The position numbers and the translations under genes were made by a program. Below the pieces are notes generated by a model. It saw nothing but the letters and a program-made list of their open reading frames with translations. It ran no database searches and was not told the origin of the DNA. A stretch of DNA of 63,989 nucleotides, filler included, from Collodictyon triciliatum (Eukaryota): NCBI GenBank assembly GCA_043381765.1. It is 5 parts of 5 records of this genome, joined end to end, with 100 filler letters (N's around TTAATTAATTAA, not from the genome) between each part and the next. Parts side by side here need not be neighbours in the genome. Positions count along the whole stretch, not along the records: positions 26,810 to 50,258 come from JBHJMP010000954.1; 4 more parts are not named here. One strand, 5' to 3'. How positions within the stretch are numbered: position 1 is the first letter of the stretch; the number at the start of each line of letters is the position of its first letter. Of this stretch, positions 30,701 to 33,700 are shown piece by piece.

Positions 30701-33700
30701 ACTCTATGAAAAATATGAGGACTTTTCTAAGGAATTACTCAATGACTTGGCTCAAAAGAAGCAAGACGATGCAGAGTCCGACGCACATATGAGAGAAATC
30801 ATCGAACTGGCTGTGCGAGCTGACGCATTAGAAGTCTTGTCTCACCCGCTCGTCTCTGACGCTGTTAGCAGAACTTGGGTCAATCGTGCTGACCTACGTT
30901 CACATCTCATGACCCAACAACAAAAAATATCTTGGTGGGAAGATGGTTTGTGGAAAGGTATAGGATACCTGATTATTGCTCTCCGAAGTGAGACTCCCAA
31001 ATTCATTGGCTCACCAGCAGCAAAGTTTTTCCTCTCTGCTACCATGTACTTGACCTACGTCCTTATTCTAACTGCCTTTGCGGTCCAGTACAACAGTACT
31101 TATGACGACTCTACATACTTTTTTACAAAGAAGCTGCAAAGCACCTTCAATACTGAGGAAGTGACCGATGATGATGCATTTTGGAACTATGTCTCTAACG
31201 ACTTTGGGCCGGCTGTGTATGGTGGTGCTAGGGGAGATAACTTTTCTCCTCCATCACAGAATTCGATAGGAGAGTCATACTTTTTACTCAGCGGGCCCAT
31301 ACGATTTAGACAACTGAGGAGTAGGCAAATAGATTGCATAGACTACATGCCGGATAGGAATCTAACATACCCCAGAGACTCTTCTGATAAGCCATACAAA
31401 TGCGTACCTCCGTTCATCAGTGACTACGAAGACCGAACTGCGTATGGTCCTCAGAACAATTTCACATGGCAGTCGAAATCTAAATTGCAGTCACCAGACT
31501 TGGCTGGGCTTCGAGGTCAAATCTATCCTGGTGACGGGTTTGCTTCATACATATCACCAATCGAAGCGAACGGAACACAGTATATTCAAGAGCTTAAGGA
31601 AGCATACTGGACTGACATGCAAACCCGATTCATCAGCATAGAATTCATTGTAGCAAATGACAACTTAAACCTCTTGTCAGCAGTTTATCTGATATTTGAA
31701 GTTCTTGCATCTGGGTCCATTCTGCCTTCAACAAAAATCATCACCATTCCTAGGTCGTTCCTTGAGATAAAGTCTAATACAGGAAATGACGATTGGATTC
31801 GTCCGGTATTTGCTCTTCAGATACTCTTGGGAATTTATGCATTTGGATTTTTGTTCCATGAACTACAGCAACTCATCAATCAAAAGACAGACTACCTTAA
31901 AGATGCCTGGAACGCCTTCGATATCAGCCTTTTTACCTTGTTGTTTGCTATTCTTGGTCTTCAGCTGATGATGTATGACTTGGACCCGAGCCCGAATAAC
32001 TTTGCCGAACCTGACTCACCTGGCTTCATAACGTTCCAAGAGACGATGAATACATTATACTTGCAGAAAGAACTCCTTGCCATCCTCCTGTTCATGTCCT
32101 GGGCTCGCCTATTGTTTTACCTCGGTATTCATCCTTCTTTTGGGCCTATGCAGTTGATTGTGAAGCAAATGTCTTTCAACATGGCTCAGTTCCTTCTGTT
32201 GCTGCTGTTGTTCGTGTTGGCCTTTTCCACAGCCTTCTACACTGTTTACGGAAGCGTCATGGATGAGTACTCTTCCATCTTAAACTCCTCCTTCAGCTTA
32301 GGAAACGCTCTATTTGGAAACTTTGAGTTTGAACCATTGAACGACAATGACATGTTCCTTGGCCCAATTCTTTTGTTTGGATTCCTCCTGGTGTGTAGCG
32401 TGTTGCTTATGAACTTCTTGATTGCCATTCTCTCTGGTACGTATGAAGAAATCCAAACCAAATCCGAAGAGAAATATCGTCAAATCTTTGCCGATACAGT
32501 GATTGGGCTGTTGCAATCTCCTTGGCCGGCTCCCTGGAATCTGACACGCCCTTTGGTATTTATCATTAAACCTATTTGGGGATTACTCCGACCAGTACTT
32601 CGATTTGTCGACCATCTCTCATGGTGGGCGTGGGAGGACCGCATGCGAGGATGGTACTTTTTGTGGGAGGATGATGAATTGGACGCCAAAATTACGAGCA
32701 ATATGCTCTATCCACTCTTTGATGCTTTCGACGATTATGCAGACCTCTTTGGAGATATGTGGGTGACCAGCTGGATTGACTACGGGGTCATTGTCTTTGG
32801 TTGGTTCTTTACGATTATCTTCTCTATATTCCTGTCAGCGATTCGATTCATATCTTGGCTGTACAATAAAATCGTCCCCCATCGAGTCCGCCATGAAATC
32901 ACGAAGGAGCTTGAATTCTTGGAGGAATTGACTGGCAAGAAACAAAAGAAGCAAGGCGTTGATACTTATGCGGAGACCCAAATGTCCTTTTATCGCTTCT
33001 CAATTCGAATTCTGTGGATTGGAACTTACTTCTTCTGGTACCCACTCTACTTTCTACGTTATATTTGGATGCTAAAGGAGGTACGTGATTTTGAAATACG
33101 TCTTCAATGGTATATACCCCTTCTCTCTTCGTATCCGACCCATACATGAATGTCATGAACTGACCATCTCTTTTTTTTAAAAATTTTTTTTTTTGGCGGA
33201 ACACCGCGTTCATTACCCGGATAAAATTTTTTCTTGTTAAAAAAGATTGAAGAAGGTAAACTTTGAACACGCATTGTTATATATGAGTTTTTTTTCCCTC
33301 AAAAGAATAATAATAACAAATCAATTTTTGTTGCAGAAGAGTTAAATATCAAAATCAAAATTTAATTATTTAATCCATTGGCATCAAATAATAGCGCGCC
33401 TGCGAGCAAAGAAGTTGGGTGGCCTAGACTTTGAGTCTTCCAAGAAACCCAGTGACAACGGAAGCGATTTCGATGTTTGCTTCTCTGAAGAATCGATGAT
33501 TGTGTCCAACCGTTCGCATGGTACAGTGTGTATCTACGGGAAAAAGAAGTGGAACAAAAAAGACGAGGACATCTGGTACTTTGAAGTGGAGGTGCTTTCC
33601 CCAGGGTGGGTGTCGATTGGAGTCATGCTGGACAACACGTACCATTCCATGATGCCGGGAAGGGCGCCAAGTTCTGTCGGATTCGAATCAAAGACTGGAG

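Follow-up and report, generated by a model that had tools for sequence, protein, structure and literature searches.

In the freshwater protist Collodictyon triciliatum (assembly GCA_043381765.1) we identified a five-exon gene that probably encodes a cation channel subunit of the TRP superfamily, predicted to combine a PKD2-type core, the flanks of group-1 TRP channels as a retained module, and LRR and SPRY domains. The membrane core (S1, TOP dome and S2-S6) is of the polycystin-2 type but has on either side the cytosolic module of group-1 TRPs, which canonical polycystins do not share; the subunit is presumably tetrameric. The window, a stretch of 63,989 nucleotides, contains the gene within the part at 26810-50258 (JBHJMP010000954.1). 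A first-pass annotation had proposed, for 30790-32545, a channel core that is a hybrid of group 1 and group 2. This interval corresponds to residues ~93-678, part of one exon of five, and the proposal was borne out: one protein unites a TOP domain of group 2 and a PKD2-like core with pre-S1 and TRP-domain flanks of the group-1 type. Residue numbers follow P0001, the translation of the ORF at 30513-33149 (+), with 878 aa.

The region 27793-35454 (+) is a single gene of five exons with a product of 2299 aa. The spliced CDS (6900 nt) has a single, terminal stop, and all four introns are GT..AG. We joined the five exons on the basis of RNA contigs and homologue continuity. Metatranscriptome contigs from different studies match the gene at 95-100%, and single HSPs of four Diphylleia proteins cross the junctions, for instance those of P0003 (591-2070) and P0005 (524-2052). 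RNA-contig cover is partial across the four runs (none on 30374-30697, for example), and its gaps are evidence neither way. From the N- to the C-terminus, the product carries ~800 aa of LRRs, a TRPC/TRPM-type linker, the TOP domain and channel, a TRP domain and SPRY domains.

Exon 1 (27793..30217, +) holds the start codon and the LRR domain of ~800 aa, and is covered by RNA contigs from X3, X4 and X5. It starts either at the ATG at 27793 or at the in-frame Met-8 codon at 27814, the latter matching the N-termini of homologues (MSTLEEL... or MATLTEL...). Intron 1 (30218..30522, +; 305 nt, GTAAGT...TTGTAG) is pyrimidine-rich and repetitive. The X5 contig, from a lake metatranscriptome, stops at 30217 and then runs on with CACTACCACCATC, which equals the window from 30523. 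The 30217|30523 join is in frame (phase 1) and is spanned by single BLAST HSPs of Diphylleia homologues; its basis is a 13-letter loose end on one low-depth contig, plus homology. Exon 2 (30523..33080, +) encodes the linker and pre-S1, S1, the TOP domain, S2-S6, the TRP domain and further helices, so that linker, TOP, channel and TRP domain all lie within one unbroken exon.

Regarding the 3' half of the gene, intron 2 (33081..33245, +; 165 nt, GTACGT...AAAAAG) has canonical ends and is followed by a micro-exon of 10 nt (exon 3, 33246..33255, +) that encodes Ile-Glu-Glu plus the opening base of the codon that follows. The X1 contig reads up to 33080, then 8 extra letters, and then the SPRY exon. 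The micro-exon letters ATTGAAGA from this contig occur once in 33001-33450, between AG and GTAAAC, and keep the frame; the micro-exon is based on one contig from a near-identical strain. After intron 3 (33256..33394, +; 139 nt, GTAAAC...TAATAG), exon 4 (33395..34361, +) encodes the first SPRY domain and the beginning of a second SPRY-like region. Intron 4 (34362..34514, +; 153 nt, GTAAAT...ACACAG) is in frame, and its joint 34359>34513 (cut +2, GT..AG) is found in contigs from two studies, X1 and X4. The coding part of exon 5 (34515..35454, +) comprises the end of the SPRY-like region, a Ser/Gln-rich tail and the stop codon. The 3' UTR extends over 35455..35656 (+) to the poly(A) site, where 16 consecutive A stand behind 35656, the end of the X1 contig. 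Since X1 contigs bear template-switch adaptor ends, besides this run, we consider X1 to be cDNA.

The PKD2 motifs that had been noticed in the long S1-S2 loop are all present in P0001, between residues 215 and 411. This loop (31098..31796, +) forms a TOP/polycystin domain of 230 aa that is predicted to be extracellular or luminal, with a Pfam Polycystin_dom match (PF20519, E 5.2e-18, residues 215-411) and four of the 26 N-x-S/T sequons. Its sole Cys residues, Cys275 and Cys297, are invariant across 79 aligned sequences and make a conserved, putative disulfide pair that would brace the TOP dome. The S2-S6 channel core with the pore loop (31797..32438, +) matches PKD_channel (PF08016, E 8.2e-26, residues 433-647) and Ion_trans (7.2e-14). 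In a phmmer search of the PDB, PKD2 was matched with E 3.3e-32 over residues 180-652. When residues 425-640 (S2-S6 without the TOP domain) were used, PKD2 gave 9.2e-9 (38.7 bits) and TRPC5 1.1e-5 (28.7 bits). Conservation is high in S5, the pore helix and S6, and in the gate region, NFLIAIL. The selectivity filter reads F-G-N-F-E-F where PKD2 reads L-G-D, with Asn replacing Asp and a Glu two residues on; among relatives, P0002 also has Asn, P0003 has Ala-Asp, and most paralogues have G-D or G-E. We also considered a cytosolic Ca2+ site in S2/S3 (E..Q, WN..D), but this motif does not discriminate, because PKD2 reads WNCLD at the same S3 position.

The AF2 model (pLDDT 81.7, pTM 0.76) agrees with a polycystin-2 core. 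Against PKD2, Foldseek gave a target-normalised TM-score (TMt) of 0.85 and a best TMq of 0.47, with ~21% sequence identity, while PKD1 chains gave TMq 0.32-0.37 and TMt 0.36-0.42. With VIA, PKD2 structures aligned over 441 residues (Z 31.7, rmsd 2.5), covering model residues 168-654. The aligned ranges differ between the groups: those of PKD2, PKD1L3 and TRPML1 are limited to 165-654, with PKD2 starting at 168 and ending at 642-654, whereas group-1 TRPs start at model residues 1-40 and end at 666-698. The latter align over 349-403 residues, which is more than the ~280 residues of S1 plus S2-S6.

On the N-terminal side, the helical linker and pre-S1 domain (30523..31013, +) are of the TRPC/TRPM type. 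The motif LAVxAxAxxxLSHPxVxxxxxxxW lies at 30798-30878, the pre-S1 segment IIELAV...SHPLVSDAVSRTW occupies residues 96-122, and W122 is invariant. We searched the PDB with a family profile of this flank (A4; 13 rows, 134 positions) and obtained TRPC1 (7.8e-8), TRPC3 (5.7e-7), TRPM7 (1.5e-6) and TRPM8 (1.3e-5, over positions 1-126); the best 60 of 98 matches with E<=10 were all TRPC or TRPM. The single sequence of the flank also found TRPC1 (E 0.26), a weak match when taken alone. AF2 pLDDT is 79-96 across most of residues 1-130. When the N-terminal domain was folded alone, its structure matched TRPM3 (Z 8.5) and TRPM8 (Z 7.7), with TRPM and TRPY spanning a modest Z 8.5-5.9, and no TRPC chain appeared among the best 50 structure matches listed. 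As many unrelated helical proteins score Z 5.6-7.7, this lone-domain search does not establish a fold relationship. The S1 helix follows at 31014..31094 (+), with a hydropathy peak at 173-191 and an AF2 helix at 168-194. Its entry, SPxxKF at 31011-31034 (SPAAKFFL, residues 167-174), aligns with the 'SPFMKF' of TRPC1/TRPC3.

On the other side of the channel, a TRP-domain equivalent (32439..32612, +) consists of a TRP helix, a PAPWNL motif and then a hydrophobic helix at 681-699. The post-S6 segment NFLIAILSGTYEEIQTKSEEKYRQ...PAPWNL corresponds to residues 634-677, pLDDT is 82-94 across residues 640-680, and the TRP box, EKYRQIFA, has a Tyr where a Trp is usual. Searching the PDB with the post-S6 family profile (A3; 14 rows, 70 positions) gave NOMPC (3.5e-8), Chlamydomonas TRP1 (CrTRP1, 8.5e-8), TRPM2 (8.3e-7) and TRPC4 (3.9e-5). 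The best 60 of 121 matches with E<=10 were all group-1 TRPs, and the alignments span both the helix and PxPxNL. The single-sequence search gave YVC1 as the best match (0.0013), followed by nvTRPM2 (0.012), both weak alone. The group-1 character that the first-pass annotation had assigned to the pre-S1, S1-entry and post-S6 segments is thus confirmed by profile matches to TRPC, TRPM and TRPN.

Two further predicted hydrophobic/aromatic helices (32757..33080, +; about 749-787 and 817-856) are conserved in the LRR family, as seen from the alignment with Diphylleia paralogues. The first has a hydropathy peak of 2.47 at 759-777, the second is below threshold, and AF2 pLDDT here is 46-70. Pfam YVC1_C (PF23317) gave a partial match (E 4e-4, 20.2 bits, below the curated cut-off of 27), which is precomputed for 7 relatives as well, and the TRPY1 structure aligned with Z 14.9 over model residues 11-668.

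Regarding the outer modules, the product of exon 1 matched solely LRR families in Pfam (LRR_8, E 1.5e-68, 14 stretches; LRR_14, 1e-56). No 19-aa window upstream of S1 reaches a Kyte-Doolittle mean >=1.5, and as it has no hydrophobic segment the LRR domain is predicted to be cytosolic. A Pfam SPRY match covers 33415-34362 (E 1.7e-18), and the exon 5 region at 34474-35451 matched no Pfam family. The Pfam scan gave no EF-hand, coiled-coil or WD40 family, and none of the four ORF products matched a RyR-domain family at E<=1, with SPRY found instead. To our knowledge, LRR and SPRY domains are unusual for a TRP channel.

As had been suggested, the combination belongs to a lineage and is not a one-off. 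It is shared by Diphylleia rotans, four Amoebozoa and environmental records, and D. rotans paralogues have the same architecture of LRR, TOP/channel and SPRY. Among 12 homologues scanned, LRR, TOP and channel occur together in seven, four of which add SPRY, while two (P0010 and P0013) have ankyrin repeats with TOP and channel. SPRY lies at the same place in P0002, P0003, P0005 and P0006, with two stretches in P0003. The relatives without LRR or SPRY, some of them with ankyrin repeats, come from Amoebozoa and environmental records. Conservation of the flank motifs extends to 14-15 proteins, belonging to six or more organisms; both motifs are kept in nine members of the LRR family and in P0010, P0017, P0060, P0091 and P0111. 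Ordinary PKD2-like proteins mostly lack them: the S6...PxPxN motif was found in 13 of 151 PKD2-like representatives, and the only profile matches across the TRP helix outside the training rows (P0013, P0028 and P0047) fall in the same clade. A sequence search with the post-S6 profile returned six family members already found and one new protein, P0165. A word-indexed homologue search with the whole protein as the query returned no matches, and a profile of the broad 79-row alignment searched against the PDB was dominated by canonical PKD2 and gave no information on the flanks.

In a tree built from the core only, the 15 labelled proteins, together with P0028 and P0047, lie on one side of a branch. 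Support for this hybrid clade was 97 (FastTree SH-like, 137 rows) and, with the better model, 73 (IQ-TREE PMSF SH-aLRT, 49 rows), and that for the LRR family was 100 and 99. The gene thus falls in a clade of protist TRP channels that pair a TOP domain with group-1 flanks; the LRR/SPRY form of the clade is represented by this gene and in D. rotans, and forms that have ankyrin repeats or are plain come from Amoebozoa and environmental records. The family so far consists of unannotated transcriptome or metagenome predictions only, and in the literature searched we found no description of this architecture of LRR, TOP/channel, TRP domain and SPRY.

As the core tree is unrooted and contains neither group-1 nor TRPML sequences, retention of the flanks, as opposed to their acquisition, is what we infer: most likely, a pre-S1/TRP-helix module persisted in this clade and disappeared from canonical TRPP and TRPML. 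If so, the dichotomy of 'TOP or TRP helix' characterises the families that have been sampled, mainly those of animals, and not the superfamily. A bolder version, which we put forward tentatively, is that the clade descends from a TRP lineage pre-dating the split between groups 1 and 2. The ancestral eukaryotic TRP would then already have had the pre-S1 linker, the TRP helix and the TOP dome, with the dome lost in group 1 and the TRP-helix module lost in canonical TRPP and TRPML. Next to ankyrin, melastatin-homology and WD40 domains, LRR solenoids would have been chosen independently as a fourth kind of cytosolic 'repeat' for sensing or tethering.

One could argue that the protein is a chimera made by shuffling, in which the membrane core of a protist TRP gene of group-1 type was exchanged for an S1-S6 cassette of PKD2 type, TOP domain included, or in which the S1-S2 loop of a group-1 channel gained a TOP domain. 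The mosaic would then be derived and uninformative on the TRP ancestor. Protist TRP genes do swap cytosolic modules, as seen within this clade, some members of which start with LRRs, some with ankyrin repeats and some with neither, and not all of which have SPRY, and the available part of the oomycete PKDRR paper describes a PKD core coupled with RyR domains (PMC7399828). Besides, the flanks score only with group 1 (among the best 60 matches listed for each) and the core scores best with PKD2. However, without its TOP domain the core is merely 10 bits nearer to PKD2 than to TRPC5, which makes it intermediate and not a crown PKD2. The flanks are closest to no single family, with the orders TRPC1, TRPC3, TRPM7 and NOMPC, CrTRP1, TRPM2, TRPC4 each falling within ~3 orders of magnitude, which speaks against a donor of recent date. 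As both Amoebozoa and Diphylleia, a protist that is not an amoebozoan, have the same combination, any shuffling would be ancient, and insertion of a TOP domain alone leaves the PKD2-like S2-S6 unexplained. Hence, we regard a chimeric origin as doubtful.

Regarding function, what follows on activity as a channel, assembly into tetramers, location in a membrane and the part played by the LRR and SPRY domains is prediction from sequence and model. By analogy with TRPC, TRPM and TRPN, the TRP helix would lie beneath the S4-S5 linker and touch the pre-S1 linker, so that movements of the LRR/SPRY assembly, upon binding of proteins or ligands or through tethering, could be passed to the gate in S6. 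The TOP ring would point, like that of PKD2, to the cell exterior or into the lumen of an organelle. Alternatively, the protein might be a non-conducting or auxiliary subunit, PKD1-like, that partners a plain PKD2-like protein and acts mainly as a receptor or scaffold via its LRR and SPRY domains. The altered filter in P0001, P0002 and P0003 would fit such a role, the very large interaction domains recall receptor-type polycystins, and the many Diphylleia paralogues could form heteromers. Nevertheless, we find this unlikely: the pore-forming helices and gate region are conserved, the second residue behind the Asn is acidic (FGNFEF), the filter of most paralogues still reads G-D or G-E, and the model fits the PKD2 fold much better than that of PKD1.

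Finally, it is very improbable that we are looking at an ordinary PKD2 orthologue whose flanks resemble group 1 by chance, or at an artefact that fuses neighbouring genes: the single-sequence flank searches are weak and the window contains masked N runs, but the flank profiles reach 1e-7 and 1e-8 with exclusively group-1 proteins among the matches listed, the motifs recur across the clade and are mostly missing from other PKD2-like representatives, one exon encodes everything from the linker to the TRP domain, RNA contigs match the gene closely and no N run falls inside 26810-50258.

Reviews and recent analyses have treated the TOP domain, on the one hand, and the pre-S1 together with the TRP helix and large cytosolic domains, on the other, as marks of separate groups. 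Pre-S1 and TRP helix are described as common to every group I (GI) channel and missing from group II (GII) in the introduction of PMC9242649, and type-I features are stated to be undescribed in TRPP and TRPML in the accessible part of a recent preprint (bioRxiv 10.64898/2026.06.15.732144). Because a natural, expressed family carries both sets in one polypeptide, the two are compatible. The family makes the origin of the group 1/group 2 split directly testable through phylogeny and structure, offers a natural construct for the coupling of a TRP helix to a PKD2-type gate, and widens the range of cytosolic TRP modules by LRR and SPRY.

Among known systems, polycystin-2/PKD2L1 (TRPP) is the best match in both sequence and structure, sharing the TOP domain in the S1-S2 loop, the conserved disulfide and the PKD_channel S2-S6. 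Compared with PKD2, the protein described here adds the TRPC/TRPM-type linker and pre-S1, as well as the TRP helix and PxPxNL, outside the range that PKD2 matches (168-654); it also has a cytosolic LRR domain of ~800 aa and SPRY, and a filter of FGN instead of LGD. A pre-S1 Trp with a function and a segment called 'TRP-like' have reportedly been found in canonical TRPP channels, and the difference from PKD2 may be a gradual one.

With TRPC, TRPM and TRPN, the protein shares the linker motif 'LAV..A....F.SHP.....L...W', the 'SP..KF' S1 entry, and a TRP helix after which come P.P.NL and a hydrophobic helix. It differs from group 1 in its 230-aa TOP domain, where those channels have a short S1-S2 loop, in an S2-S6 that is closer to PKD2, in the Tyr that replaces the TRP-box Trp, and in having LRRs in place of ankyrin repeats or melastatin homology regions. 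A Tyr at this TRP-box position is common to the fungal TRPY1/YVC1 (PMC9242649, Table 1), but YVC1 is absent among the PF20519-type matches and has neither LRR nor SPRY.

Two protist systems invite comparison. SPRY is a module of ryanodine receptors too. The oomycete PKDRR is likewise a protist PKD2-type channel with cytosolic modules otherwise found in ryanodine receptors; however, in the available text of that paper it carries RyR ('R') domains and not SPRY, no LRR or group-1-type flanks are described, and the term 'SPRY' occurs 0 times (PMC7399828). TRPW, from choanoflagellates and other protists, likewise has non-ankyrin N-terminal repeats, a pre-S1 and a TRP helix, and Chlamydomonas TRP1, the second-best match of our post-S6 profile, is assigned to it (bioRxiv 10.64898/2026.06.15.732144, accessible part). 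As described there, TRPW has a WD40 propeller and a limited extracellular surface, whereas the Collodictyon protein combines LRRs and SPRY with a TOP dome and a PKD2-like core.

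The interval in which the first-pass annotation had placed the channel core (30790-32545) lies inside a longer ORF on the plus strand (30513-33149, 878 codons), and every motif quoted there is found in its translation, P0001. The TOP domain (the polycystin domain of the S1-S2 loop) and the other PKD2-type features claimed are secure, with Pfam, PDB sequence and PDB structure matches. Pfam places Polycystin_dom at residues 215-411 (E 5.2e-18) and PKD_channel at residues 433-647 (E 8.2e-26), and among all PDB sequences polycystin-2 and PKD2L1 matched P0001 best, over residues 180-652 (3.3e-32 to 7e-27). 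An AlphaFold2 model made from 79 homologues (mean pLDDT 81.7, pTM 0.76) aligned with PKD2 over 441 residues (Z 31.7, rmsd 2.5 Å), and gave a target-normalised TM-score of 0.85 against PKD2 structures. In the TOP domain, Cys275 and Cys297 do not vary across the 79 aligned rows. Using S2-S6 alone (residues 425-640, without TOP and flanks), PKD2 scored 38.7 bits (9.2e-9) and TRPC5 28.7 bits (1.1e-5). By these scores, the membrane core is nearest to the polycystins, by a modest margin. In the selectivity filter (window 32316-32336, residues 602-608) the Asp of the PKD2 LGD is replaced by Asn (FGNFEF), and the second residue after it is acidic. The homologue P0002 also has Asn at this position; most other paralogues present GD or GE.

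The same annotation had described the segments flanking this core as being of group 1 type (TRPC/TRPM/TRPN). Single-sequence searches of the PDB were only suggestive: the best match of the pre-S1 segment was the pre-S1/S1 entry of TRPC1 (E 0.26), and those of the post-S6 segment were yeast YVC1 (E 0.0013) and then Nematostella TRPM2 (E 0.012), with no polycystin among the matches listed (6 rows pre-S1, 14 rows post-S6). We then made a profile of each flank by itself from the collected homologues. The post-S6 profile (14 rows, 70 positions, beginning at the final S6 residues) matched NOMPC (3.5e-8), Chlamydomonas TRP1 (8.5e-8), TRPM2 (8.3e-7), the TRPV-type Inactive (1.5e-6) and TRPC4 (3.9e-5), followed by TRPC6/5/3, TRPM5/1/3 and Nanchung. 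Its best 60 of 121 matches (E<=10) were all group 1 TRPs, and the alignments span the TRP helix and the P.P.NL motif. The pre-S1 profile (13 rows, 134 positions) matched TRPC1 (7.8e-8), TRPC3 (5.7e-7) and TRPM7 (1.5e-6), then TRPM3/5/1, as well as TRPM8 over positions 1-126 (1.3e-5). Here the best 60 of 98 matches (E<=10) were all TRPC or TRPM, with alignments that extend from the 'LAV..A...F.SHP......W' helix pair across the pre-S1 stretch to the S1 entry, 'SP..KF'. By sequence profile, both flanks are group 1-like, as claimed.

The predicted structure agrees with these results in outline. In searches with the whole model, PKD2, PKD1L3 and TRPML1 cover residues 165-654 only. TRPM2, TRPM4, TRPM5, TRPC1/4, TRPC3, NOMPC, TRPY1, TRPV1 and CrTRP1 were found at Z 13-15.3, with alignments that start within residues 1-40 and finish between 666 and 698; for the TRPM2 chanzyme, TRPC3, TRPC1/C4, NOMPC and TRPY1, the 349-403 aligned residues exceed what S1 and S2-S6 can give. 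Folded alone (pLDDT 78.9), the N-terminal 215 residues matched TRPM3 (Z 8.5), TRPM8 (7.7) and TRPM7 (6.9) at the homologous place, and likewise TRPM2, TRPY1 and TRPM4. Since these Z values are within the range that helical bundles attain by chance, and no TRPC chain was among the best 50 matches listed for this isolated domain, the pre-S1 case depends mainly on the sequence profile.

One could argue that ordinary PKD2 orthologues share these flanking motifs. Among 151 PKD2-like proteins (P0001 and its 150 best representatives), an S6...PxPxN-type motif is present in 13, and the flank profiles found few further proteins, so that the motifs are not a general property of PKD2 orthologues. Beyond its training rows, the post-S6 profile matched the TRP-helix part of P0013, P0028 and P0047 only. 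Two other matches were off-target and were set aside: that of P0100 is elsewhere in the protein, and that of P0110 is at the S6 end only. Outside its own training rows, the pre-S1 profile matched P0060 (3.3e-8) and P0022 (7.7e-5, profile positions 60-131, covering pre-S1 and S1); P0044 and P0047 were not significant with it in this set. A true TRP box is kept or nearly kept in P0060, P0091 and P0111 (EDWGFQF, GEWGFEF and EKYRFEF), three members of the clade described next.

Trees were built from the core only (residues 168-655), leaving the flanks out; they are unrooted and comprise PKD2-like sequences, without group 1 or TRPML members. FastTree was run on 137 rows, after dropping the 14 of 151 proteins that match fewer than 330 core positions, and put the 15 labelled hybrids (proteins with a PKD2-like core and group 1-type flanks), along with P0028 and P0047, on the same side of a branch whose SH-like support is 97. 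A short IQ-TREE search with a PMSF mixture, on 49 rows (17 hybrids and 32 proteins chosen across the FastTree clades), recovered the same split with SH-aLRT 73, and gave the leucine-rich-repeat (LRR) family a support of 99. The eight closest representatives of P0001 (E 1.9e-160 to 1.7e-50, identity at most 38%) all belong to the EukProt transcriptome of Diphylleia rotans; other clade members derive from the amoebozoans Difflugia, Pyxidicula, Flabellula and Cavostelium, and environmental records. According to Pfam, 7 of the 12 homologues scanned combine LRRs with Polycystin_dom and PKD_channel, four of these seven also bearing SPRY, and two others, P0010 (environmental) and P0013 (Cavostelium apophysatum), combine ankyrin repeats with the same two domains. 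In both, which belong to the same clade, the ankyrin repeats are N-terminal to the TOP domain and the channel. P0010 has a full TRP domain ending in SPVPFNLV, and the pair represent a further 'group 1 head on a group 2 core' architecture.

The channel ORF is one part of a larger gene of five exons (27793-35454, plus strand). An upstream ORF on the plus strand (27793-30225, 810 aa) consists of leucine-rich repeats (LRR_8 E 1.5e-68, 14 stretches in Pfam) and ends in GTAAGT; the acceptor of intron 1, TGTAG at 30518-30522 (plus strand), opens an exon from 30523 that regains the channel frame. A contig of RNA sequencing run X5, a lake metatranscriptome, leaves the genomic sequence after 30217, and its next 13 letters are identical to those from 30523. 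Within intron 1, positions 30229-30469 consist almost entirely of pyrimidines, in which 'ttttcttttc' and 'ttcgttatcc' recur, and read mapping skipped them as a repeat. Contigs of run X1 bear template-switch adaptor ends and a poly(A) tail, and hence are cDNA. One of them links 33080 to the SPRY ORF through 8 additional letters, which are accounted for by a 10-nt micro-exon on the plus strand (33246-33255; ATTGAAGAAG, preceded by AG and followed by GTAAAC), with canonical sites on both sides. This micro-exon, seen in one X1 contig between the channel and SPRY exons, would escape ORF-based or most automatic gene models. Position 34361 is joined to 34515 in contigs of X1 and X4, from different studies, and poly(A) follows 35656 in X1. 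Spliced together, the five exons form a CDS of 6900 nt that has a single stop codon, at its end, and codes for 2299 aa; all four introns are GT..AG. Single BLAST HSPs cross the junctions of the spliced product in alignments with P0003 (residues 591-2070), P0005 (524-2052), P0004 (215-1964) and P0002 (588-1944), as computed with a 2296-aa version differing by three residues.

Part of the gene was present in 14 of the 15 listed runs (11 studies, shares 0.06-0.30), and contigs of four runs were placed on it in detail. Freshwater and lake metatranscriptomes contain parts of the gene that are 95-100% identical. Over the C-terminal tail and 3' UTR (35006-35656), the X1 contig differs at 25 of about 650 positions, compared with 0-8 per contig elsewhere; from its sequence, the X1 source is a close, non-identical strain or species. 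Long ORFs nearby code for a DNA-binding protein with Myb repeats (37138-38649, plus strand, E 5.9e-34) and a GT92-family glycosyltransferase (40248-42710, minus strand, E 3.8e-23); the setting is that of an ordinary nuclear gene. At four places, which coincide with the filler between the joined parts, the same pattern occurs, two runs of 44 N set 12 bases apart (26710-26809, 50259-50358, 57398-57497 and 61589-61688), and two longer N runs are at 3149-3683 and 9211-9584; in appearance, the N runs of the window look like masked or withheld repeat units, not ordinary assembly gaps.

Taken as a whole, the mosaic observation is confirmed, and it gains in significance from the complete gene model and from there being a clade of such proteins. 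The data show a subunit of the TRP superfamily that unites, in one expressed polypeptide, a TOP dome and pore module of PKD2 type with a group 1-type pre-S1 linker and TRP domain, and with LRR and SPRY modules that are probably cytosolic. Because hydropathy revealed no hydrophobic segment before S1, the LRR domain is predicted to be cytosolic. Past the TRP domain, the segment 32757-33080 (residues 749-856) encodes one strongly hydrophobic and one aromatic helix, modelled with low AlphaFold2 confidence and conserved in the Diphylleia LRR-type paralogues. These may cross the membrane as additional helices, or form a hairpin associated with it, and their topology determines the membrane side of the SPRY domains, which would be cytosolic in the case of a hairpin. 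By analogy with TRPC, TRPM and TRPN structures, the protein would be tetrameric, with the TRP helix lying parallel to the membrane beneath the S4-S5 linker and contacting the pre-S1 domain; through this contact, conformational changes of the cytosolic assembly could reach the S6 gate. The LRR solenoid and SPRY, as protein-binding modules, may serve to sense ligands or partners, or act as tethers.

Regarding its origin, the combination could be the product of ancient shuffling or a retained ancestral arrangement. We favour retention, since the core itself falls between PKD2 and TRPC5, several group 1 families lie at about the same distance from the flanks, and the combination is present in both Diphylleia and Amoebozoa.

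Full-text searches of the literature gave no account of a TRP that has both a TOP and a group 1 TRP domain, of a TRP channel carrying LRRs or SPRY, or of the TRP channels of Diphylleia. One paper reportedly describes pre-S1/'TRP-like' coupling in TRPP channels, so the contrast with PKD2 is perhaps less absolute. Members of the hybrid clade might already be in the supplementary phylogenies of PMC9242649 or of the 2026 preprints under other labels. PMC9242649 regards the pre-S1 domain and TRP helix as general in group 1 and lacking in group 2, and gives Tyr at the TRP-helix position of TRPY in its Table 1. A choanoflagellate preprint makes the same group 1/group 2 distinction and puts most non-animal TRPs outside the animal families (10.64898/2026.06.15.732245), and the TRPW preprint treats type-I features as undescribed in TRPP and TRPML (10.64898/2026.06.15.732144). 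A precedent for a PKD core fused to other modules, in this case of RyR type, is the oomycete PKDRR, which differs from the protein presented here in being without SPRY, LRR or a described TRP helix (PMC7399828).
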